Positions 3,802 to 35,375 of a stretch of 38,293 nt of DNA are shown here, in pieces (position 1 is the first letter of the stretch; the number at the start of each line of letters is the position of its first letter). Location of the stretch: contig JAGOFO010000005.1 in the NCBI GenBank assembly GCA_017997155.1, forward strand, positions 1 through 38,293, read 5' to 3'. Made by a program: the position numbers and the translations under genes. The DNA is from Myxococcota bacterium (GTDB lineage: Bacteria > Myxococcota_A > UBA9042 > DTJE01). The notes under the pieces were generated by a model. It did not search any database and had not been told where the DNA came from. It saw only the letters and a program-made list of their open reading frames with translations.

Positions 3802-4173
3802 CTATTTGCTGAAAAGCTTGTCCAGGCGGGCTTTCGCGTCGTCGGCCGTGCGTGGGGACGTCACCGTCTTGCCGCCACCGAACATCTCCTCAAGCCGATT
3901 CTTGGCCTGGGCCTCCTCGGTGATGCCCTCGGTACCGTCTACCGGCTTGAACGTGAAGTAAAGACAGAAGTTTCCCTCGGCCCGGTCACGAATGAACTCG
4001 CCCTGGTTTTCAGTGCACTGGTTGTGCACGTTCTTGTCCCAGAATTTGCAATTGTAGCAGCAATGCAGATAGGCATAGCAGTTCGGACACATGTCGCGGC
4101 GCCCGATCTTCACATCGAAGACCAGTTCCTCGCCGCAGTTATAACACTTGAAGACGGGATCGGCGGTTTCCAT
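3802..4173 (-). CDS. Cysteine-rich small protein (multiple CxxC zinc-ribbon motifs), function unknown
   Basis: 123 aa ORF with CYNCG, CPNC and CCYNC motifs. AAGGAA lies upstream of the ATG at 4173. Codon usage is consistent with its neighbours. Confidence 0.6.
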   Translation of the reverse strand: METADPVFKCYNCGEELVFDVKIGRRDMCPNCYAYLHCCYNCKFWDKNVHNQCTENQGEFIRDRAEGNFCLYFTFKPVDGTEGITEEAQAKNRLEEMFGGGKTVTSPRTADDAKARLDKLFSK

Positions 4174-4404
4174 CGGGCGATTCCTTCATCGTATGACGTG
4201 CCGGCGGCCACTCCACCGGACGAGCTCGCGGATTGTAGTTCTTTTAGTCGAATCCGTAAACCGTGGCGTGGATCGTCAGAAATATTCGGTCGTTTCTTTG
4301 GCAGATCCGAAGGGTGCGTATTAACCTCGGATTCGTCGATGCCAGATCGTCGCGGCGCGGGGTGCTCCGGCGGCGGTCGGTTCTGGATGTGGCTGGAGGT
4401 AGTC

Positions 4405-4725
4405 ATGTACGGGCTTGGTGATACGATGGTCGATGTCAGTTTTCCAGTTGCGGAGATTCGCGGCGAGAAGGTCAGCGGTTCGGGAATCGCCAGGCGCATC
4501 GGCATGACGGGCATGGAACTGGTATCGGGTGACGTGCCTCCTGGCCAGTTCGCGTGGCTTGGATTCCAGATACCCGGCTGCTCGCGGAACCTTAAGGTTC
4601 TGGGCGAAATCGTCGGCGTCCGCCGAGACGGCTCCCAGGACAGCGTCACGATTCGCTTCAAGCATGTTTTCCCGCACGACCGCGAAGTCCTGACCGGTCT
4701 GATGCTTGCCCGCGCCGTCGCCTGA
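4405..4725 (+). CDS. Small hypothetical protein (weak, non-canonical PilZ-like resemblance)
   Basis: This is the inner part of track ORF 3541..4725. The ATG at 4405 is preceded by GGAGG. The upstream part of the long ORF is antisense to pdxB and the Cys-rich gene, so it is discarded. The RRIGMTGMEL segment only loosely resembles the PilZ DxSxxG region. Confidence 0.4.
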   Translation: MYGLGDTMVDVSFPVAEIRGEKVSGSGIARRIGMTGMELVSGDVPPGQFAWLGFQIPGCSRNLKVLGEIVGVRRDGSQDSVTIRFKHVFPHDREVLTGLMLARAVA

Positions 4726-4777
4726 TCCCCTTTTCCGTTCATCTTCGTTCCATCAACCATCACCCCTGAGCATCACC

Positions 4778-4992
4778 AAAACGAAACCTGGGTTGGTTCC
4801 AGAGTGGTCCAAAAACGAAACCTGGGTTAGTTCCCGGAGGGGGTAAAAACGAAACCTGGGTTAGTTCCCGGAGGGGGTAAAAACGAAACCTGGGTTAGTT
4901 CCCGGAGGGGGTAAAAACGAAACCTGGGTTGGTTCCCGGAGGACCCCAAAGAGAAACCTGGGTTGGGGAAAGGGGTGGGGAAAAGTACTTTT
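4778..4992 (+). repeat. Array 1 of the GAAACCTGGGTT repeat: 6 direct copies at an exact 34-bp period, plus a G-rich tail
   Basis: Core copies start at 4783, 4817, 4851, 4885, 4919 and 4953. Units 4817-4918 are three identical 34-mers. The array lies in the gap between convergent genes. Confidence 0.95.
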
Positions 4993-5030
4993 GAAGTTCG
5001 GGTTAAGGTGTTTGAAATTACAGAGGTATG

Positions 5031-6218
5031 CTAGCGGGATGTTGCCTTGCGGAAGGCGCGTTCGAAGCCGGGTATGGCGCTGATGATCGTCTTGTCCGGA
5101 ACCGCGAAGGAAAGACGGAAATTGCCGGGAGCGTTGAAGCCCGATCCCGGGGTTGCCAGAACCAGTTCTTCCTTCAGCATCATGATGAAGGCGGGATCGT
5201 CCGGAATGGGAGACTTCGGAAACATGAAGAAGGTTCCCTGCGGTTTGGGCACGTCATAGCCGATCTCGGTCAGACCGTTGAACAGCAGGTCTCGCTTGGC
5301 CTGGTAGATCGGGACGTTCGACTCCCAGTCCTGAATTCTGGCCATCACCCGCTGCATCATGGCGGGAGCGTTGACGAACCCGAGCGTCCTGGTGCAGAAG
5401 GCAGCGGCCGCGAAGATCTCGCGGGCGCCGGCGCACCGGGGGCTGATCGCCAGGTATCCGATACGCTCGCCGGCGAGCGATATCGATTTTGAGTAAGACG
5501 TCACGATGACGGTGTCGTCGTAGTAGTCGGCCGGCGCCTCGTATTTCAGTCCGTCGAACAGCAGATTACGGTACGGTTCGTCTGAAACGATGAAGACCGG
5601 TCTGCCGATCTTGCGTGAGTGCTCAGTCAGCATCTCACCGATTTCCTTCAGGATTGTTCCAGGTATCATGCGTCCGGTCGGGTTACACGGCGAGTTGAGC
5701 ATCACCACGCGGGTTCGCGGTGTCAGGCGGCTTGCCATGTCCCGGACATCGGGCAGGCAGTCCGGAGTCGCCGGCGAAGTGACCTGCACGCCGTTGTGAT
5801 TCGAGATGTAGAACGAGTACTCGGGAAAGTACGGCGCCACCAGCATGACTTCGTCGCCGGGGTTCAGGACGCTGCGCAGGAAAACGTTTGACGCGCCCGC
5901 CGCTCCGACCGTCATCAGGATGTTCTCGGCTGGATAAGTCAGTCCGCCCTCGCGGGACAGCCTGGCCGCGATCGCGCGACGCGTCTCGATGTATCCGGGG
6001 TTCTGCATGTAGGTGTGCATTCCCGGAGTCTCGTCGGCTGCGACCTCCCGCAGCGCGTCGAAGAACTGCGGAGGAGGCTCGACGCAGGGACTTCCGAGTG
6101 TGAAGTCGAAAACCTTGTCGGCCCCGTGAATCTTTTTAAGCTCGAGCCCTTCCTCAAACATCCGCCTAATCCAAGAGCCGCGTTTTATATCCTGGCTGAC
6201 CTGATCCGACGTGTACAT
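5031..6218 (-). CDS. PLP-dependent class I/II aminotransferase (aspartate/alanine aminotransferase-like)
   Basis: The ORF contains SYSKS..LAGERIGY (PLP lysine region), NPCNPTG-like SPCNPTG and FRLSF motifs. The start was trimmed to ATG 6218 (MYTSDQVSQ...) because the upstream extension is Cys/Gly-rich and looks non-coding. Confidence 0.8.
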   Translation of the reverse strand: MYTSDQVSQDIKRGSWIRRMFEEGLELKKIHGADKVFDFTLGSPCVEPPPQFFDALREVAADETPGMHTYMQNPGYIETRRAIAARLSREGGLTYPAENILMTVGAAGASNVFLRSVLNPGDEVMLVAPYFPEYSFYISNHNGVQVTSPATPDCLPDVRDMASRLTPRTRVVMLNSPCNPTGRMIPGTILKEIGEMLTEHSRKIGRPVFIVSDEPYRNLLFDGLKYEAPADYYDDTVIVTSYSKSISLAGERIGYLAISPRCAGAREIFAAAAFCTRTLGFVNAPAMMQRVMARIQDWESNVPIYQAKRDLLFNGLTEIGYDVPKPQGTFFMFPKSPIPDDPAFIMMLKEELVLATPGSGFNAPGNFRLSFAVPDKTIISAIPGFERAFRKATSR

Positions 6219-10482: not shown

Positions 10483-12768
10483 TTGAAACAGAATCTGAAG
10501 ACGATCCTTGTCTGGGTGCTGCTGGTCGGAGTGTTTTTTGCGATCGTGAAGACCGTTGATCGCAAGCCTGCCTCGACCGACATCAAATTCTCGGACTTCA
10601 TCGTGCTGGCGCTGGGTTCTGACAGCAAGTCCGACCAGACGGAAGTGCCCGCCGGGCATGCCTCCATCAAGGCGACCACTATCGAGGCAGCCCCGGTTGA
10701 GGGACAGGGTTCCGTAAGGGCGAATGATATTCGCCCTTCTGGGCAGGGTCAGGGTCAGGCGCAGGGACAGGGACAGGCTGGCGACGGCGCGAATGTCGCT
10801 CCTTCTCCTGAACCCGGAAAAGAACCGGCCCCGGTGCCCGCACCCGTGCCCGCACCCGTGCCTGCCGCTGAACCAGTCCCCGCACCCGTCCCGGCCCCCG
10901 TCCCGGCCCCCGTCCCGGCCACTGCACCCGCTCCCGCCCCTGTACCGGCACCGGCCCCTGCCGCCCCCGCGGCCAGTGTGGTCAAGGCTCCTCTGGGAGC
11001 GGCCGTGACTCCAGGCGCCGACTCAGCGTCCGAGCCCATGTTCAAGGTCGTGTCGATCGTCGTGACGGGCCGCAGGATCGAGGGAAAGTTTGCCGACGGC
11101 AAGGAATTCAAGACGTTTGGTGATATCACCGCGTATCAGAAGGACCTTGTCGCCGAGGGAATCGAGGTCACCTACAAGGACGAAACCGGCGGCATCTGGA
11201 CGGCACTGCTTACGTCCTGGCTGCCGATGATCTTCTTCCTCGCCATCTTCATCTTCTTCATGCGCCAGTCCTCGCAGGGTGGCGGCGGAAAGCTCTTCCA
11301 GTTCGGCAAGAGCAAGGCACGCCTGACCAACGAGGGCCAGACCACGGTTACTTTCAAGGACGTGGCCGGCATCCAGGAAGCCCAGGTTGAACTCTCCGAG
11401 ATCGTTGAATTTTTGAAGTCCCCGGATTCCTTCACGAAGCTTGGCGGCCGCATTCCGCGCGGCGTGCTCCTGATGGGACCTCCGGGCACCGGCAAGACGC
11501 TTCTCGCCAAGGCTGTGGCTGGTGAGGCCGGCGTACCTTTCTTCTCGATCTCCGGCTCGGATTTCGTCGAGATGTTCGTCGGCGTTGGCGCTTCCCGTGT
11601 CCGCGACCTTTTCGAACAGGGCAAGCGCAAGGCGCCGTGCATCATTTTTATCGACGAGATCGACGCGGTCGGTCGTCAGCGCGGCACCGGTCTTGGTGGC
11701 GGCCACGACGAGCGCGAACAGACACTGAACCAGCTTCTGGTGGAGATGGACGGCTTCGAGGCCAATTCGGGGGTCATCATCGTGGCGGCCACGAACCGTC
11801 CCGATGTTCTGGATCCCGCTCTGCTGCGTCCCGGCCGTTTTGACCGCCGCGTTGTGGTTTCCAGCCCGGACATAGCGGGCCGCGAGGCGATTCTGAAGGT
11901 GCACACGCGCAAGGTCCCGCTGTCCGGCGACGTGGATCTGGGCGTCGTGGCCCGCGGCACACCCGGCTTCGTGGGCGCGGACCTTGCCAACATCGTCAAC
12001 GAGGCGGCCCTGCTTGCCGCGCGCCGTGGAAGCGACAAAGTCTGCATGGTCGACTTTGACGAGGCCAAGGACAAGGTGATGATGGGCACCGCCCGCAAGA
12101 GTTTCGTGATGGGCGAGGAAGAGAAGAGACTGACCGCCTATCACGAGGCCGGCCACGCTATCGTCGCCAAGTCGGTCCCGGGCGCCGATCCCCTGCACAA
12201 GGTCACGATCATTCCGCGCGGCATGGCACTGGGCATGACCCAGCAGCTTCCGCTTGAGGACAGGCACACCGCGTCGCGCCGGTATCTGGTCGACAGGCTC
12301 GCGATCCTCATGGGTGGCCGCGCGGCCGAGAAGGTCGTGTTCGAGGACATCACGACCGGCGCCGGTCAGGACATCAAGGTCGCCTCGGACATCGCCAGGA
12401 AGATGGTCGCTCAGTGGGGCATGTCCGTTCTTGGTCCGGTTCATCTGGATCAGAACGAGGAAATGGTCTTCCTGGGGCGCGAGCTGTCGCATCAACGGGC
12501 GGTCAGCGAGCAGACCGCGATGCGCGTGGACCAGGAGATTTCCAAGCTGGTCACCGAGGCTCACGAGACCGCGCTCCGGATACTGACAGAGCGCAGGTCA
12601 GCGCTTGAGGCGCTTGCCAGCGCGCTGCTGGAACGTGAAACGCTGGATGGCTGGGAAGTGGACCGGCTGATCGTCGATTGCGGATTCGAGCCGGCGACGC
12701 TCAGCCACACGCCCCGGGTAGCGACGCCTCAGGAAGGCGGGTCCCCCCGACGGTACCGCGTCGGTTGA
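10483..12768 (+). CDS. ftsH: ATP-dependent zinc metalloprotease FtsH with an expanded periplasmic region
   Basis: Walker A is [23 protein letters not shown]. It also has [11 protein letters not shown], the second region of homology, and the HEAGHAIV zinc site. The start is TTG. There are two TM helices, at about residues 7-22 and 238-260. Confidence 0.95.
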
Positions 12769-13023: not shown

Positions 13024-13371
13024 ATGAGCGATGAATTCGGTGCCGTGATTGGCAGGAATATTGTTGTCCGGGGCGAGATCGAGGGTTCCGAGGTCCTTCT
13101 GGTCGAAGGTCGCGTCGAGGGAACGGTCAATCTCGAGTCCGAACTGGTGGTCGGTGTTTCAGGCCATGTCGAGGCCGACGTCAACGCCCAGGCGCTGACG
13201 ATCGAGGGCGAGTTCAGCGGCACGGCCGCCTGCAGCGATATCGTGACCCTGGTCAACGGCTGTCACGGCACCGGCGAACTGAAGGCGCCTCGCGTCGTGA
13301 TCGAGGAAGGCGCCGTGTTCACCGGCAGGTTGAACATGGAGACCGGCGTCCGCGAAAGCCGGGGGGAGTGA
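13024..13371 (+). CDS. Bactofilin
   Basis: Repetitive beta-helix pattern (VVRGEIEGSEVLLVEGRVEGTV...VSGHVEADV...IEGEFSGT...IEEGAVFTGRL) typical of the bactofilin/DUF583 fold. The start was trimmed to ATG 13024. Confidence 0.75.
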   Translation: MSDEFGAVIGRNIVVRGEIEGSEVLLVEGRVEGTVNLESELVVGVSGHVEADVNAQALTIEGEFSGTAACSDIVTLVNGCHGTGELKAPRVVIEEGAVFTGRLNMETGVRESRGE

Positions 13372-13374
13372 TTC

Positions 13375-13698
13375 ATGTCGGAAACAACGGTTGGCACCAA
13401 GACCCGGATTAACGGCAGGATCAGCGGCACGGACCGCCTTTGCGTGCACGGTCTGGTCGAGGGTGAGGTCGCCATGGAAGGCGACCTGGTGGTCGAGGCG
13501 GACGGCAGGGTCGAGGCGACCGTCTCCGCGCGCGCCGTCAACATCCGCGGCACTGTGAACGGCGAGGTCACCGGACGCGACAAGGTCGAGATCGCTCCAG
13601 ACGGTCGGATGATCGGCGACGTCAGGACCGGCAGGATCCTGATTTCGGACGGTGCGGTTTTCAAGGGGCGCGTCGAGATGGACGTCAGGGAGGGCTGA
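13375..13698 (+). CDS. Bactofilin
   Basis: 107 aa. It has INGRISGTDRLCVHGLVEGEV...GDLVVEADGRVEATV...IRGTVNGEV...ISDGAVFKGRVEM. GGGGGAG precedes the ATG, which lies 3 nt after the previous stop. Confidence 0.8.
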   Translation: MSETTVGTKTRINGRISGTDRLCVHGLVEGEVAMEGDLVVEADGRVEATVSARAVNIRGTVNGEVTGRDKVEIAPDGRMIGDVRTGRILISDGAVFKGRVEMDVREG

Positions 13699-13701
13699 TC
13701 G

Positions 13702-14289
13702 ATGGCAGATAACAAAAGAACCGAGATCGGGCCGGACACGCTTGTCGTCGGCAATATCGACGCCCAGGAAGACGTTTCCATCCACGGCAGGGTGGACGGG
13801 ACGATCCGCTCGACGGCCACCGTCATCATCGAGGACGACGGCGAGGTGGACGGCGAGATCGAGGCTTTGTCGGTCGTGGTCGCGGGCGTTTTGATCGGCA
13901 ATATCCGCGCGACATCGAAGGTCGATGTCGAGGAGACCGGCGTGGTTCAGGGCGACATCGCGACACCGGTGATGGTGCTTGTTGATGGCGGCGCCGTTGC
14001 CGGAATGCTGGTGATGGACGACTCGAACCCGCAGCCCGTAAAGGTTAACACCGCCGGCGGCACGACCTATCGCCCCCAGGCGACAAGGCAGACCGGTTCG
14101 ACCAGGCCGACCGCCTCCAGGACCGCGGCAAGGCCTTCAGCCTCCGCGACCAGAACAGCCCCGACTTCCCGTGGCGCCACGTCGGGCACCCGCGCCCGCA
14201 CGGTTGAGACGCCGCGCACCGCCAGGCAGCCCCGCAGCGCAGCTCCGCTTATCGATGACGTGGAAGGCCCGGTTGAGTCCGAGTCTTGA
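13702..14289 (+). CDS. Bactofilin with a long Arg/Thr/Ala/Pro-rich disordered C-terminal tail
   Basis: A bactofilin core (VVGNIDAQEDVSIHGRVDGTI...VAGVLIGNI...VVQGDI) is followed by about 80 aa of low complexity (TRQTGSTRPTASRTAARPSASATRTAPTSRG...). GGGAGGG precedes the ATG. Confidence 0.8.
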   Translation: MADNKRTEIGPDTLVVGNIDAQEDVSIHGRVDGTIRSTATVIIEDDGEVDGEIEALSVVVAGVLIGNIRATSKVDVEETGVVQGDIATPVMVLVDGGAVAGMLVMDDSNPQPVKVNTAGGTTYRPQATRQTGSTRPTASRTAARPSASATRTAPTSRGATSGTRARTVETPRTARQPRSAAPLIDDVEGPVESES

Positions 14290-16972: not shown

Positions 16973-17755
16973 ATGGATCAGGCAAGACAGGCGATCGAAC
17001 GCGAGGTCAAGCTGACCGTTGATGGCGCCGCGGATTACCTCGCGATGGCGTCGGCTCTGCCGGTTCCCAGGCGTTGGGGGCTGCAGTTGAACGTGTATCT
17101 CGACACGTTGTCGAGGCGTCTGCGTTCGAATCGGATTTCACTCAGGATCCGGGTCACGCCGGACTTCGCGCTCTTGACGTTGAAGACGCCTGCCCGGTCG
17201 GCGGACAGCGGCGACGGGGTGTTCTGCAATCTTGAGACCGAGGTTCCTTTTGACAGGGAGATGGCGGTCGAGTGGATCAACGCCCCGGAAAGGGCCGCTC
17301 CGGCGTCGTTGGCCGGTTTTGAAGCACTTGCCACGGTGATTGCCGATGAACCTCTGGTGGTGATCGGCTGGTCCATGACCAGGCGGGCCGTTTGCGATAC
17401 TGCCTGGGGCGTGACTCTCGAACTTGACGAGACGGTGTTTCCGGACGGCACCCGTGACTTCGAGATTGAGGCCGAGCACGAGGACGCGGCGCTGGCGCGT
17501 CGGGTTATCGATCTGCACGCGGATCGGGTGGGGCTTAGACTTGGCGCGCAGACCAGATCGAAGCACGCCCGGGCGATGGAGCGCCTGGGAAGCGTCCGCT
17601 GGGTGCTGCCTTCCGGAAGCCCCGAGGCGCCGCATCCTCCGTTGTTTCCATCGGCGGCCCCGGCAGGGGCATTCGGGCTGGTCAAGGTCGGCGCGGCTGG
17701 TACGGTGATCGACAGTACGGAGAGGGGCAGTGGGGGGAAAGCAGGCTCGAACTGA
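16973..17755 (+). CDS. CYTH-domain protein (CyaB/thiamine-triphosphatase-like triphosphate tunnel enzyme)
   Basis: The N-terminal IEREVKL matches the CYTH ExExK signature, with further acidic/basic strands (SLRIR, ETEVPF, FEIEAEHE). ATG 16973 is preferred over TTG 16958. Confidence 0.6.
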   Translation: MDQARQAIEREVKLTVDGAADYLAMASALPVPRRWGLQLNVYLDTLSRRLRSNRISLRIRVTPDFALLTLKTPARSADSGDGVFCNLETEVPFDREMAVEWINAPERAAPASLAGFEALATVIADEPLVVIGWSMTRRAVCDTAWGVTLELDETVFPDGTRDFEIEAEHEDAALARRVIDLHADRVGLRLGAQTRSKHARAMERLGSVRWVLPSGSPEAPHPPLFPSAAPAGAFGLVKVGAAGTVIDSTERGSGGKAGSN

Positions 17756-19709
17756 TCTGGCCGATGTCGGCGACGCGCGGACAGGTTTTTCGCCCGCGCC
17801 CGGGGTCCAGGCGGCCCCCGGCATCGCCGCGGTGTTCCTGGTCACCCTGGTTTTCTATCTGCTCTGGTTGCCCGGGACCGCTTACTGGCTGGATTCGCCG
17901 GAGTTCATGACAGCGGCGGCCTCGCTGGGGCTGGCTCATCCACCGGGACACCCCGTGGTCGCGGTTCTGATGAAACTGGCGTCGCTGCTGCCGCTTGGCG
18001 ACGTGCCGTTCAGACTTAACCTGGTGGGCGCGATTCTGGGCGCGGTTGCCGCCGGTTTGACCGGTGGTATCGCATGCGTCGTCGCGCAGCGGGTTCTTCA
18101 CCGTCTGAACAGGGACGGCAACACGGGCCGTTTGCGTCACGCATCGACCCTTGTCGGAGTGGCAGGCGGGCTGCTTTACGGCCTGGGCGCTTCCTCGATG
18201 ATCCAGGCGATGGCGGCCGAGGTCTACACCCTTAACGCGGCCCTGGTGCTTGGCGCGGTCTATCTGTTGATTTCCAGTCCCGACGGCGCCGACGCGCGTC
18301 GCACGCTGGCTGCCGCTGTTCTGATGGGCCTGGCCTTTGCCAACCATCACCTCCTGGGTCTTCTTGCCGGTCCGGCCGTGCTCGTGGCGGCTTTCCGGTC
18401 CCGGCGGGACACCCGGACGGTTATCGTCGCGGCCATGACAGCGTGCCTGGTGGCGGTGTGCTGCTATCTTTATCTGTGGGTGCGTTCGGCCGCCGGAGCC
18501 TGGCCCACCTGGTCTCCCGTGCGCGACCCTGCCGGCTTTTTCTGGTATGTGTCAGCGTCCATTTTTTCGCAGTCGCTCGGGGGCTTCGAGCAGTCGGGTG
18601 GTGGCATCGGCCAGAACCTTGCGTTGGCGTCGGTTGTCGCGGCCGGTTCCCTGGGCGTGGCCGGCGTTGTCCTGTCGCTCGGGGGCGCCTGGCTGGGCGC
18701 GCGTTCCGGAGCGGCCCGCGAGATCGTGGTCTTACTGCTGCTCGCGGCCGGGGGCTTTGGTTCAAAGGTCATGATGGGGATCCTCGACCCCTCGAATCCG
18801 GACGACCACGGTTACTTTTTGACAGCGCTGGCTGCGACCGCGGTTCTGGCCGCGTCGTTTTTCTGCCTTCCGATGGCAGCCGGAGGGGGCAGGGCGGGCC
18901 GGGTCGTGCGCGGCATTGCCTCGGCCCTGCTTGCCGCGATGGTCGTGGCGGTCATCCCCGCCAGCGTCGACGTTGGACGCGACAGATCACATTTTGACCA
19001 CACGCGGCGGGTTTCCAGACTGGTCTGGAGCGATGTCCCCAGCGGCTCGGTCGTGCTGGTGTCGCACTACCCGGTGTTCTTCCTGATGCAGTACCAGCAG
19101 ATGGTCGAGGGTGTGCGGCCGGATGTTTCGCTTGTCCAGCAGAGTCTATACTACAAGGCGCGCGGCGGCCAGTGGTACGCCCGTGAGATGAAGGCCCGGC
19201 ATGCCGACCTTTCCGGCCTGATGGACGCCTTCCAGGCAACCTCGCAGGTTTCCTGGCCGGCCCTTGAAGCGCTTGCCTCCCGCAGACCGGTTCTTCTTGA
19301 CCCGTCTCCAGACTTCGCCGCCCCCCTCGACCGCGTCTCCTTCGCGGGCTGGTTCTTTTCCGTCTCCCCCAGTCCTGCCGCACCCCCCAACCCAACCCAG
19401 GTTTCTTTTTCGGGCCCCGGAAACGCTCCCGGAAAAACAACCCAGGTTTCTTTTTCGGGGGGTGAACCGGCTGTGGAAAGGGGGGTAGACGCGCATCTGC
19501 TGTCCTTCGATCGCGTGCTTGGCCGGGCGCCGATGTCCAATGTCGAGACCAGGAGGGTGGTGACCCGTAATCTGGTTTCCGCGGGTGACTGGCTTCAGGG
19601 CGCAGGATACGACGCAGCCGCCATTGAGCTGTTTTCCCGTGCCGCGTATTACAATCCCGAGGATCGTTCGATTCGTGGACGCCTCGGAGATGTGGCGGGA
19701 GACAGATGA
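17730..19709 (+). CDS. Polytopic membrane protein of the DUF2723 / GT-C (PMT-like glycosyltransferase) type with a C-terminal soluble TPR-like region
   Basis: YWLDSPEFMTAAASLGLAHPPGHP is the characteristic first-loop motif of DUF2723/TMEM260-like GT-C proteins. More than 8 hydrophobic helices follow. The start codon is uncertain (GTG 17730 overlaps the CYTH gene). The stop overlaps the next ATG (ATGA). Confidence 0.65.
   Translation: MGGKQARTDLADVGDARTGFSPAPGVQAAPGIAAVFLVTLVFYLLWLPGTAYWLDSPEFMTAAASLGLAHPPGHPVVAVLMKLASLLPLGDVPFRLNLVGAILGAVAAGLTGGIACVVAQRVLHRLNRDGNTGRLRHASTLVGVAGGLLYGLGASSMIQAMAAEVYTLNAALVLGAVYLLISSPDGADARRTLAAAVLMGLAFANHHLLGLLAGPAVLVAAFRSRRDTRTVIVAAMTACLVAVCCYLYLWVRSAAGAWPTWSPVRDPAGFFWYVSASIFSQSLGGFEQSGGGIGQNLALASVVAAGSLGVAGVVLSLGGAWLGARSGAAREIVVLLLLAAGGFGSKVMMGILDPSNPDDHGYFLTALAATAVLAASFFCLPMAAGGGRAGRVVRGIASALLAAMVVAVIPASVDVGRDRSHFDHTRRVSRLVWSDVPSGSVVLVSHYPVFFLMQYQQMVEGVRPDVSLVQQSLYYKARGGQWYAREMKARHADLSGLMDAFQATSQVSWPALEALASRRPVLLDPSPDFAAPLDRVSFAGWFFSVSPSPAAPPNPTQVSFSGPGNAPGKTTQVSFSGGEPAVERGVDAHLLSFDRVLGRAPMSNVETRRVVTRNLVSAGDWLQGAGYDAAAIELFSRAAYYNPEDRSIRGRLGDVAGDR
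19394..19450 (-). repeat. Array 2 of the GAAACCTGGGTT repeat: 2 copies 45 bp apart, embedded in frame in a CDS
   Basis: AACCCAGGTTTC occurs at 19394-19405 and 19439-19450. Both copies sit in the longer repeat CAACCCAGGTTTCTTTTTCGGG. They translate to TQVSFSG twice in the 17730..19709 ORF. Confidence 0.9.
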
Positions 19710-27802: not shown

Positions 27803-28003
27803 AACCCAGGTTTCCATTTCTACCCAACCCAGGTTTCGATTTTGGCCCTCTCTGCCCAACCCAGGTTTCCATTTCCGGCACCTTGAACCCAACCCAGGTT
27901 TCCAATATTTGCCAGTCCAGACCCAACCCAGGTTTCCAATATTTGCCAATCCAGACCCAACCCAGGTTTCCATTTCTGGCGCCTTGAACCCAACCCAGGT
28001 TTC
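27803..28003 (-). repeat. Array 3 of the GAAACCTGGGTT repeat: 7 direct copies (minus-strand orientation)
   Basis: AACCCAGGTTTC starts at 27803, 27826, 27858, 27891, 27925, 27959 and 27992. The array lies in the divergent intergenic region between the DsbA-like gene and a kinase gene. Confidence 0.95.
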
Positions 28004-28136: not shown

Positions 28137-29936
28137 GTGAAAGGCGTCGAGGGCGAGATCGTCGGCGGACGGTACGTGATTGGACGTCAAGTCGGTTCCG
28201 GCGGTTTTGGAACAGTCTTTCTGGGACGTCAGATCAATCTCGACCGCGAGGTCGCCATCAAGGTGATGCGACGGGGTCCAGAGGAACCGGCAGTCGCTCG
28301 CGAACGCTTCAGGCGCGAGGCCATTCTCAGCAGTGGTTTGAGTCATCCGAACATCGTTACCTGTCACGACTTCCTCGTCGACGATGATGACGATCTGATC
28401 CTGGTGATGGAATACCTGCGTGGCGTCACGATGGACAGGATTCTGGCGGCGTCTGGTCGGATGGAGCCAGGCAGGGTGGCGGATCTCGTCGCAGGAGTCG
28501 CAGCAGGCCTTGGCGAGTGCCACCGCTGCGGGATTGTTCACAGGGACATTAAGCCGTCGAACATCTTCATTATCGATGAGGGGACAACCAGAGAGAGGGC
28601 GAAGATCATCGACTTCGGCATTCTGTGGGCCATGCCGGACTTTGACGGGGGCCTTCCCGAATTGACTAGGGCCAACGCCTTCATCGGGACTCCCGAGTAT
28701 GTCGCTCCCGAGGTCCTTTTCGGTGCTCTTCCCGACGGAGGAACCGATCAGTACGCGCTCGCCTTGGTCGTGCTGCGAGCAGTGACTGGTCAGCTCCCAT
28801 TCCCAGACTCCAAAGGCGCGGCGCTGTTGAAGAGGTTGACAGATCGGCCGCCTTTGCTGGATCACGAGGTCATGCGGGCGTGGCCGACCGTTCGTGGCGT
28901 GTTGTTCAAGGCATTGTCTCCGGATCCGGGGGATCGTTTTGAAGACATCGACCAGTTCGGTTCGGCCCTTGCCGATGCAGCCGATGTTGGCAGACGAGCA
29001 GCGCAGGCAGGTTCGGTCACGACCGAAACCGTGGTTGAACTGAATCACCCCGGGCTTCCGTGCGATAGTTCATCAGCCTTTGTCCGCGCGTCGAACAACG
29101 CGATCGTTGAGGACAATGGCGAGGCTGCGGATATCTCATCCCAGGTTGAAGCTATTTCATCCCAGGTTGAAGCTGACGGAACCAGACCATCTGCGGGTCA
29201 CCGCATCAAGTGGCTTGCATTGCTGTTCGCCCTCGTGGCTGTTGGCTTTGGAACTGGCGTTGTCTACCTTGTGGTGTCTGACGCCGGAGCTCGGACCGTA
29301 TCGGCGCCTGCGGGCCATCCTGTGGTGGCAGCCGTTGCTCCTGACCCGTCGGAAGCCGAGGAAGACACGACTCCTCCTGTTTCGTCTGCGTTGCCTCGGA
29401 TGGCTGCCCCCGAAACAACTCCCGAAGCACTTGCGCCGTCGCCGGTCCTGGCGTCGGAGCCCCCTGTGGACAAAACCACTTCAGAGTCCGTTTCAAAGGC
29501 CGCGCGCACTGTAAAGACAGAACCAGTGGCCGAGCGTCCACGGACAAACAGGCCGGAGGTCTCCCGAAAGCCTTCCACCCGTTCGCCTTCCAGCATGAAC
29601 GCGGGGTCTGGAGATACCTCGACAGTCAAGCGCCCCTCGCCAGATCCATTGCCAGCGGTTGAACCGGTCCAGATCTCCCAAGCGATCCCTGCACCTGCGC
29701 CTGCGGTTCCGACTGAGGTTGCACCGTCTGAGGAGACGGCCCTGATAATCAATGCGGAACCCTTTGGCCAGGTTACTTATGATGGGCGCCGGATGGGACA
29801 GACTCCAGTAGTAATTGAAAGCCCCAAGCCGGGCCAGCATACGGTCGAGGTCGTCAGCGCATCGAACGTCACTATCAGAAGGGTGGTGACTGTCGAAGAG
29901 GGAAAAAGAAAGGTGGAGTTCTTCAGCCTGGACTGA
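28137..29936 (+). CDS. Hanks-type Ser/Thr protein kinase with TM helix, Pro-rich linker and C-terminal PEGA-like domain
   Basis: GSGGFGTVFLG, VAIKVM, HRDIKPSNI, DFG and TPEYVAPE motifs. The TM helix is WLALLFALVAVGFGTGVVYLVV. The C-terminal INAEPFGQVTYDGRRMGQTPVVIESPKPGQHTVEV resembles a PEGA domain. The GTG start is preceded by GGAGG. Confidence 0.9.
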   Translation: MKGVEGEIVGGRYVIGRQVGSGGFGTVFLGRQINLDREVAIKVMRRGPEEPAVARERFRREAILSSGLSHPNIVTCHDFLVDDDDDLILVMEYLRGVTMDRILAASGRMEPGRVADLVAGVAAGLGECHRCGIVHRDIKPSNIFIIDEGTTRERAKIIDFGILWAMPDFDGGLPELTRANAFIGTPEYVAPEVLFGALPDGGTDQYALALVVLRAVTGQLPFPDSKGAALLKRLTDRPPLLDHEVMRAWPTVRGVLFKALSPDPGDRFEDIDQFGSALADAADVGRRAAQAGSVTTETVVELNHPGLPCDSSSAFVRASNNAIVEDNGEAADISSQVEAISSQVEADGTRPSAGHRIKWLALLFALVAVGFGTGVVYLVVSDAGARTVSAPAGHPVVAAVAPDPSEAEEDTTPPVSSALPRMAAPETTPEALAPSPVLASEPPVDKTTSESVSKAARTVKTEPVAERPRTNRPEVSRKPSTRSPSSMNAGSGDTSTVKRPSPDPLPAVEPVQISQAIPAPAPAVPTEVAPSEETALIINAEPFGQVTYDGRRMGQTPVVIESPKPGQHTVEVVSASNVTIRRVVTVEEGKRKVEFFSLD

Positions 29937-30956: not shown

Positions 30957-31142
30957 AAAACGAAACCTGGGTTCGAAATTCCGGTGCCTGAAACGGACCC
31001 AGAAACGAAACCTGGGTTCGACAAAAACGAAACCTGGGTTCGAAATTCCGGTGCCTGAAACGGACCCAAAAACGACCGGAAAAAGAAACCTGGGTTCGAG
31101 TTTTTTGACCTGTATATGTGCCTGAAAAAGGAAACCTGGGTT
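30957..31142 (+). repeat. Array 4 of the GAAACCTGGGTT repeat: 5 direct copies
   Basis: Copies start at 30962, 31007, 31029, 31085 and 31131. The 45-nt block 30957-31001 is repeated exactly at 31024-31068. Confidence 0.95.
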
Positions 31143-35159: not shown

Positions 35160-35375
35160 GAAACCTGGGTTGTGTTTTTAGGTCCCTGAATTCGGACGAA
35201 AACAGAAACCTGGGTTGGCAAAAATCGAAACCTGGGTTGGCCAAGAATCGAAACCTGGGTTGGCCAGAAATCGAAACCTGGGTTGGCTCCATGACGGCCA
35301 GAAATTGAAACCTGGGTTGGTCAGAAATCGAAACCTGGGTTGGCTCCATGACGGCCAGAAATTGAAACCTGGGTT
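35160..35375 (+). repeat. Array 5 of the GAAACCTGGGTT repeat: 8 direct copies
   Basis: Copies start at 35160, 35205, 35227, 35250, 35273, 35307, 35330 and 35364. The 55-nt block 35265-35319 is repeated at 35322-35376. Confidence 0.95.

Follow-up and report, generated by a model that had tools for sequence, protein, structure and literature searches.

Helically phased, head-to-tail arrays of an exact 12-bp box in a narrow Myxococcota clade: a candidate family of architectural DNA sites

Arrays of short DNA boxes in direct orientation are best known from the iterons of R6K and RK2 and from the centromere arrays of plasmids and phages (parC of R1, tubC). In these systems short, oriented, non-palindromic boxes stand head-to-tail at whole helical turns, in association with A-rich or bent DNA, and their function depends on proteins that bind cooperatively to one helix face. 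The known iteron arrays are each a single locus beside a rep or par gene on the replicon. REP elements and their BIME clusters are abundant, lineage-specific extragenic repeats in clusters of variable copy number, enriched in convergent gaps and also at the 3' ends of genes, and they dock architectural proteins (gyrase, IHF). REPs are imperfect hairpin palindromes, which alternate in orientation in BIMEs and are linked to RAYT transposases. The uptake sequences of Neisseria (DUS) and of the Pasteurellaceae (USS) have an exact core of 9-12 bp, present at about one copy per kb in a narrow lineage, in intergenic and permissive coding positions, with very few near-miss variants; they occur as single or inverted-pair copies. 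MIRU-VNTRs and other bacterial minisatellites are intergenic tandem repeats whose unit number differs in close strains (MIRU units are 40-100 bp), while the Rickettsia palindromic elements (RPEs) are palindromic single insertions of 100-150 bp that lie in frame in genes, adding a peptide at a tolerant region.

Two published repeat families are near analogies to the one described here, with a different architecture. In Geobacter metallireducens, intergenic DNA contains multicopy sequences that are unexplained (PMC2700814), and the Beggiatoaceae have direct repeats of TAACTGA (PMC4679880). The literature on phased intergenic repeats, myxobacterial repeats and uptake sequences yielded analogies only and no account of the box or its family, and a literature search for the 12-mer itself returned vertebrate primer matches only.

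We analyzed a 38,293-nucleotide stretch of a Myxococcota genome (the window, at its full length), in which the 12-bp box GAAACCTGGGTT occurs in five arrays. The features discussed below are as follows:

4405 to 4725, plus strand: 106-aa CDS from public gene calls, its stop 57 bp ahead of the first box of array 1
4778 to 4782, plus strand: A-rich lead-in AAAAC, ahead of the first box of array 1
4783 to 4964, plus strand: array 1, six exact GAAACCTGGGTT boxes, one every 34 bp; unit 1 at 4783-4816, an identical trio at 4817-4918, unit 5 at 4919-4952 and a terminal box at 4953-4964
4959 to 4979, plus strand: putative G-rich tail GGGTTGGGGAAAGGGGTGGGG, read from the sequence, beginning within the last box of array 1
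5031 to 6218, minus strand: class I/II aminotransferase, 395 aa, its stop 66 bp past the last box of array 1
19394 to 19450, minus strand: array 2, two boxes 45 bp apart, inside a TMEM260-like CDS (17730-19709, plus strand)
27803 to 28003, minus strand: array 3, seven boxes with spacings of 23/32/33/34/34/33, in the divergent gap between a DsbA-like gene and a Ser/Thr kinase gene
30962 to 31142, plus strand: array 4, five boxes with spacings of 45/22/56/46, between a YjbQ/UPF0047 gene and a same-strand 181-aa CDS
35160 to 35375, plus strand: array 5, eight boxes with spacings of 45/22/23/23/34/23/34, in the divergent gap between adenosine deaminase and DJ-1/PfpI genes

An earlier note on this DNA had described array 1 as six copies at an exact 34-bp period, with three identical central units and diverged flanking units. 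Indeed, six exact boxes start at 4783, 4817, 4851, 4885, 4919 and 4953, every step being exactly 34 bp, and Tandem Repeats Finder reports a repeat at 4778-4964 with a period of 34, 5.5 copies and a score of 260-288. Splitting the array at the box confirmed that units 2-4 are one identical 34-mer, GAAACCTGGGTTAGTTCCCGGAGGGGGTAAAAAC, and that units 1 and 5 are diverged variants; the sixth box closes the array and runs into the G-rich tail, a motif of four G-tracts. Similar G-rich tails often close arrays, being found in the flanks past arrays 2 and 3 and, elsewhere in the clade, around position 251 of contig L074; the array 1 tail and the L074 tail (GGGTTGGGACGGGTGGGG) fit a four-tract G-quadruplex pattern on the box strand.

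The location of array 1 between two convergent 3' ends (stops at 4725 on the plus strand and 5031 on the minus strand) likewise agrees with public gene calls, which we took from annotated contigs that carry an identical neighbouring acyl-CoA dehydrogenase. The small upstream CDS has a weak, sub-threshold PilZ match. The convergent pair is kept in relatives whose aminotransferases are 77%, 71% and 57% identical in amino acid sequence, and the 106-aa CDS is a real gene. With convergent 3' ends on both sides, array 1 cannot have a simple role as operator or promoter, as had been argued.

The exact box is greatly over-represented in the window, with 28 copies compared to 0.22 expected (density ~0.7 copies per kb); none of 100 shuffles reached 28. 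Copies with one mismatch are absent from the window and those with two mismatches (five, versus 2.9 by chance) are at the chance level; thus, conservation of the box is all-or-none. Nearly every box of the family is preceded by rAAAws, giving the extended consensus rAAAws-GAAACCTGGGTT-sG, often followed by GTGR.

The arrays lie in ordinary chromosome. The window encodes a glycosyltransferase, FHA proteins, an acyl-CoA dehydrogenase, PhoH-PIN and FtsH proteins, three bactofilins, Ser/Thr kinases, a XerC-like recombinase, Lon, UvrB and a tRNA-Arg, and the genes that adjoin the arrays are functionally unrelated to each other. We found no cognate gene beside the arrays, as RAYT is for REP, and saw no transposase next to them. 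We rejected three candidate identities for the arrays. A specific regulon operator was set aside on the unrelated functions of the neighbours, and array 1 has no promoter to regulate. A sigma-70, ECF or sigma-54 promoter within the unit was set aside on inspection, which found no -10-like element and many arrays without any TA step. Finally, the arrays might be read as transposon ends, inverted arrays flanking cargo near the XerC-like gene, but the same sites are occupied in a 90% identical relative and housekeeping genes lie between them.

Three further features of the window concern repeats or gene order. First, within the kinase CDS at 28137-29936, a 21-bp unit, TATCTCATCCCAGGTTGAAGC, occurs twice (29132-29174) and contains CCCAGGTT, a fragment of the reverse-complemented box. 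Second, the three bactofilin genes (115, 107 and 195 aa) stand in a row at 13024-14289, followed by a phosphoribosyltransferase gene and then by an FHA/Ser-Thr kinase pair, a block that is kept in relatives down to 57% amino acid identity. Third, the FtsH-like CDS (10483-12768) contains overlapping tandem repeats of 6-30 bp, of the CCCGCACCC and GTCCCGGCCCCC types, at 10743-10961, which give the protein an N-terminal extension rich in Pro and Ala. Gene calls in near-identical strains differ in the length of this protein (802, 808, 816, 819 or 827 aa, or split in two), and the repeat is therefore an apparent coding VNTR.

The boxes obey a strict orientation rule and a helical phase. Across the clade sequences, all 125 neighbouring box pairs within 100 bp of each other are head-to-tail, and none is inverted. 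After near-identical units were collapsed, the 52 distinct unit lengths cluster at 22-23 (the commonest), 33-35, 44-47, 56-57 and 66-68 bp, that is, at ~12+11n, with a minority of off-phase spacings (19, 21, 27, 29 and 37 bp). The best period is 11.45 bp (Rayleigh R of 0.78), a value reached by none of 5000 random sets, each of which was maximised over the same period range as the data. The A-tracts of the spacers share this phase, lying 3-4, ~15, ~27, ~39 and 48 bp upstream of the next box, and on the box strand the spacers hold 71 A-tracts versus 13 T-tracts. Intrinsically curved DNA is classically marked by phased A-tracts, and a period near 11.3 rather than 10.5 bp is usually tied to negatively supercoiled or wrapped bacterial DNA. 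Therefore, from the whole-turn spacing and the in-phase A-tracts, all boxes of an array are expected on one side of intrinsically curved DNA. The helical quantisation could also be partly mechanical, arising by slippage between 11-bp A-tract modules and not by selection for one face.

To find relatives, we scanned for two boxes 10-34 bp apart in one genome per species and added a scan of metagenomes. In the one-genome-per-species scan, many arrays were found in one MAG, labelled uncultured Anaeromyxobacteraceae (CAZNJW01), which is ~90-91% identical to the window, shares its gene order and carries arrays at all five orthologous sites. The metagenome scan added further contigs, 91-99.5% identical to the window or to CAZNJW01, and the available record names point to anaerobic digesters as the habitat of this clade. 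In sister lineages with the same synteny, the two stop codons that flank array 1 in the window are separated by 53, 27 or 37 bp, and over 11-14 kb we found neither tandem arrays between genes nor any arrayed box that fits the consensus pattern with up to two mismatches. GCA_964470365.1 is one example of the box-free sister lineages. Thus, the family was recently acquired by a narrow clade, and any function that it has is dispensable or recently gained. BLAST of the array 1 gap against plasmids and phages gave no match.

Matches to the 12-mer outside the clade (Neobacillus, Treponema, Hymenobacter, gut Actinobacteria and giant-virus MAGs) were set aside and rejected as homologues; they differ in GC content, period and flanks and are unrelated tandem repeats. 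Some of these arrays have properties of their own. Contigs of ~20% GC, from a giant-virus MAG (IMG/VR GVMAG-M-3300023184-64) and from freshwater, carry long arrays with periods of 36, 43 and 52 bp, in which the GC-rich core is a near-palindrome, GGAAACCTGGGTTTCC or GGAAACCTAGGTTTCC, unrelated to the clade of the window. Other unrelated arrays of the 12-mer occur in a Pseudomonadota MAG (DAOLIT01), a Treponema MAG and JAAUXU01; among the unrelated arrays, one has 42-bp units with a hairpin and T-run (GCAAGAGACCACGCGGTCTCTTTTTT) and another has dozens of 22-bp units (GGAAACCTGGGGTGTCTAAT).

Within the clade, the strains differ just past the right end of the window. A DDE_Tnp_1 transposase gene lies there in one strain (L102, 92-1195), and others have at this site (L100/L101, 394-1600) a GH63-like gene that contains an array of two boxes, with an intergenic array of three boxes after it. 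In CAZNJW01, the contigs are broken exactly at array 1. Metagenomic contigs from the clade also frequently end inside box arrays (at the start of L012 and L074 and the end of L005 and L021), from which we conclude that short-read assembly fails at the arrays; where an array runs to a contig end, its length is a minimum.

The boxes themselves are conserved beyond their surroundings. Between the window and the ~90% identical MAG, the boxes are preserved exactly in both lineages while the spacers diverge: 1 of 181 aligned box positions differs, compared to 14% of the six bases upstream of the box, 37% in the spacers (a rough figure, because the aligner was guided by the boxes) and 15-24% at the third codon positions of three flanking genes. 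Units within an array are more alike than they are to their orthologues, which is concerted evolution. However, concerted evolution homogenises whole units and does not account for arrays at different loci being identical in the box alone; thus, the box is kept either by selection or by a bias in transmission.

These comparisons bear on a selfish origin, in which a short mobile element of ~23 bp, comparable to MITEs, REPs or RPEs, spread in the ancestor of the clade, inserted at any site that tolerated it and grew by slippage as a minisatellite, with no host function. Such a history would account for the sister lineages, which lack boxes and have an orthologous gap of 27-53 bp, for the enrichment of arrays in convergent gaps, where insertion does the least harm, for in-frame insertions in protein linkers and for the fast turnover of copy number with units of an array evolving together. 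If the boxes were relics of this kind, we would expect old orthologous copies to decay, but they remain nearly invariant beside heavily diverged spacers, and one-mismatch relics are absent from the window. Furthermore, the unit has no terminal inverted repeats or hairpins, no transposase was seen next to the arrays, and a conserved phase between box and A-tract is not expected of junk DNA. We consider a selfish element without host function unlikely, and a purely selfish minisatellite is disfavoured given the invariance of old orthologous boxes.

Copy number varies among otherwise near-identical assemblies. Array 1 has 4 boxes in L087, L089 and L092, 5 in L040, L088 and L090, and 6 in the window and L091; these alleles differ solely in the number of copies of the identical central unit. 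Array 4 has 4, 5 or 6 boxes, array 5 has 6 or 8, and array 3 always has 7, while array 2, compared across homologues of its gene, has 1 or 2. These counts come from short-read assemblies, in which identical tandem units can collapse, but the periodic tract of array 1 (~120 bp) is shorter than the k of two assemblies (k = 127 and k = 141) that give 6 and 4 boxes, and so the variation is probably real. Thus, the earlier predictions that array 1 had expanded recently and that its copy number may vary between strains are both supported, the latter extending to arrays 4 and 5. Replication slippage or unequal exchange between identical units would add or remove 34-bp units and in this way generate the variation.

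Boxes also lie within genes, where they must coexist with a reading frame. Array 2 is in frame in the TMEM260-like (DUF2723) gene, antisense to its mRNA, and the peptide TQVSFSG is encoded twice. Two copies of the peptide are present in the window and in a 91% identical homologue, and one in an 88% identical homologue that is 15 aa (45 bp) shorter; in a protein alignment, TMEM260-like homologues at 53% identity or less have none. The site is a variable linker ahead of a conserved TPR-like tail. Further coding boxes in the clade fall, among other proteins, in a MutS2-like protein, in a GH63-like protein and in the linker of a lipoprotein (3 x 19 aa); their frames differ, and both orientations occur. 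The periods of within-gene arrays are only 33, 45 or 57 bp, which are multiples of both 3 and ~11.3.

Orientation of the box is not tied to transcription. We tallied 16 intergenic array contexts from our own rough gene calls, with duplicate orthologues removed by hand: approximately 7 are convergent, 4 divergent, 2 tandem and co-directional, and 3 tandem and antisense. The earlier note had viewed the setting of array 1 as typical of a stand-alone small RNA, a terminator or a structural or nucleoid site; the last of these fits best, and the first two are not supported by the results that follow. At gathering thresholds, Rfam matched only the tRNA-Arg in the whole window, and nothing matched in the array 1 gap at E<=1. 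A promoter scan of 4100-5300 found no promoter-like site in the gap, and a terminator scan of the same interval gave three weak hairpin-plus-T matches compared to 1.5 expected. Folding of the gap on both strands was worse than that of shuffled sequences (z ~+2), with no stable structure.

A function at the RNA level would require that the array be transcribed, as a small RNA or in a 3' or 5' UTR, and that the motif bind an RNA-binding protein, in the manner of CsrB, or pair with another RNA. Array 1 is co-directional with the upstream 106-aa CDS and might belong to its 3' UTR; arrays 4 and 5 end 31-33 nt ahead of start codons (33 bp from the DJ-1 ATG in the case of array 5) and are thus probably in 5' UTRs; and GGA motifs occur in the spacers of array 1. 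However, the promoter, terminator, structure and consistent orientation that mark a small RNA of CsrB type are all missing, and in several coding regions, as well as in the three antisense tandem contexts, the boxes run opposite to the mRNA. Moreover, a spacing constraint of ~11.4 bp is a property of duplex DNA and not of single-stranded RNA. We therefore give an RNA-level element hardly any credence, and the presence of boxes in both orientations and inside CDSs, with the Rfam, promoter and folding results, speaks against a stand-alone small RNA.

An element specific to the convergent gap, halting read-through by hairpins or by a bound roadblock protein, is highly improbable as well. Convergent gaps are the most common of the intergenic contexts, and some units, on their minus strand, resemble a weak hairpin with a T-run. 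Nonetheless, the terminator matches are not above chance, the GC-rich hairpin and U-run of an intrinsic terminator are lacking, sister lineages cope with a gap of 27-53 bp and no array, and arrays also lie upstream of genes and inside them, where termination would be harmful.

The arrays share properties with each of the described systems and differ from each. Like the iteron and centromere arrays, they are composed of short, oriented, non-palindromic boxes, placed directly at whole turns (12+11n bp, R = 0.78) in A-rich and apparently curved DNA. Unlike them, they are scattered, with five arrays in 38 kb that adjoin unrelated housekeeping genes or even lie inside genes, and they are not confined to one locus of a plasmid, phage or secondary replicon with its cognate rep or par gene alongside. 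The arrays are dispersed over the chromosome without a nearby cognate gene, and therefore they do not belong to the iteron/parC/tubC class. With REP/BIME elements they share abundance, extragenic location, restriction to a lineage, variable copy number and enrichment in convergent gaps. The boxes, however, have no dyad and no stable fold, are always direct repeats (125 of 125 pairs in the same orientation) and are locked in helical phase, in contrast to palindromic hairpins of alternating orientation.

Similarly, a comparison with the tandem and in-frame repeats is informative in both directions. The box arrays resemble MIRU-VNTRs and minisatellites in that the unit number differs among close relatives (4, 5 or 6 in array 1, as judged from short-read assemblies), but MIRUs have no invariant short box common to many loci with unrelated spacers and no helical-phase rule. 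Array 2 resembles the RPEs in adding a peptide in frame at a tolerant region, but the boxes are phased and tandem. CRISPR arrays have repeats of ~23-55 bp and unique spacers of similar length, usually next to cas genes; here, the conserved unit is 12-20 bp, the spacers range from 10 to 55 bp and, in any one array, are related or identical to each other, and a scan of window genes found no cas domains among those covered.

The uptake sequences are a close counterpart of the box itself. In ~150 kb of clade sequence sampled, the box is an exact, over-represented, lineage-specific core that occurs in and between genes. If the box were a recognition tag like DUS or USS, it would accumulate and be kept exact through preferential transmission of tagged alleles, and the arrays would be products of slippage, tolerated in DNA that is not essential. 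The all-or-none 12-mer and its density of ~0.7 copies per kb, its restriction to one lineage, its positions between genes and, whatever the frame or orientation, in coding linkers that are permissive, and the exactness of orthologous boxes beside decaying spacers would all follow. The combination of a core with phased A/T tracts also recalls the Haemophilus USS, which has helically phased tracts of this kind. Known uptake sequences, however, are not helix-locked direct arrays, whereas the boxes are strictly head-to-tail, in arrays of up to nine or more units quantised at ~11.4 bp, and they are clustered (28 copies in five clusters) and not spread. We regard an uptake-like or other biased-transmission drive as distinctly unlikely on balance, though the invariance of the box could stem from such a drive rather than from a host function.

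The oriented exact box, the head-to-tail order, the whole-turn spacing, the in-phase A-tracts and the indifference to transcription together point to recognition of duplex DNA by a protein. Our preferred reading, which we hold with about even confidence, is that the arrays are a clade-specific selected system in which a putative sequence-specific protein docks head-to-tail on one helix face of curved DNA, in an architectural role. The functional unit would be the invariant, oriented 12-bp box with the A-tract that precedes it. The putative protein would dock on each box as a monomer or asymmetric unit, and we infer that neighbouring bound proteins may touch head-to-tail, giving a cooperative, wrapped or filament-like nucleoprotein complex. 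The role of this complex would be architectural or topological, and it would not serve the adjoining genes as an operator; in the convergent gap at 4725-5031 it would be located where converging transcription meets.

A broader version of this docking model is tentative, and we think it more doubtful than not. The clade may have acquired a chromosome-wide system, in which a putative protein polymerises head-to-tail on phased GAAACCTGGGTT boxes. The whole of this reading includes hundreds to thousands of wrapped sites, some of them in genes, an 'iteron network' or satellite chromatin without a described counterpart, which might act on nucleoid architecture or supercoiling or else serve as an array-type DNA-uptake tag. 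The family itself would belong to the dispersed-repeat or binding-site-array sort that is already known, with an unusual combination of properties. Three features, all of them genome-wide, are decisive: the boxes keep phase with the helix, they are conserved in an all-or-none manner, and they are confined to a single narrow clade.

In practice, the arrays are VNTRs by which strains can be told apart in an uncultured Myxococcota population that is abundant in anaerobic digesters, and they account for the breaks of metagenomic contigs at array sites. For annotation they carry a warning, as small RNA, promoter or CRISPR-like calls should not be made at box arrays. If a protein does read the boxes, these bacteria would possess a natural, recently evolved system with a 12-bp address, a strict orientation rule and a helical register, repeated many times along a chromosome, coding sequence included. 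Such a system would be a clean model for the origin of architectural DNA-binding networks, for the expansion and contraction of binding-site arrays, and for a constraint at the DNA level that operates alongside the reading frame.
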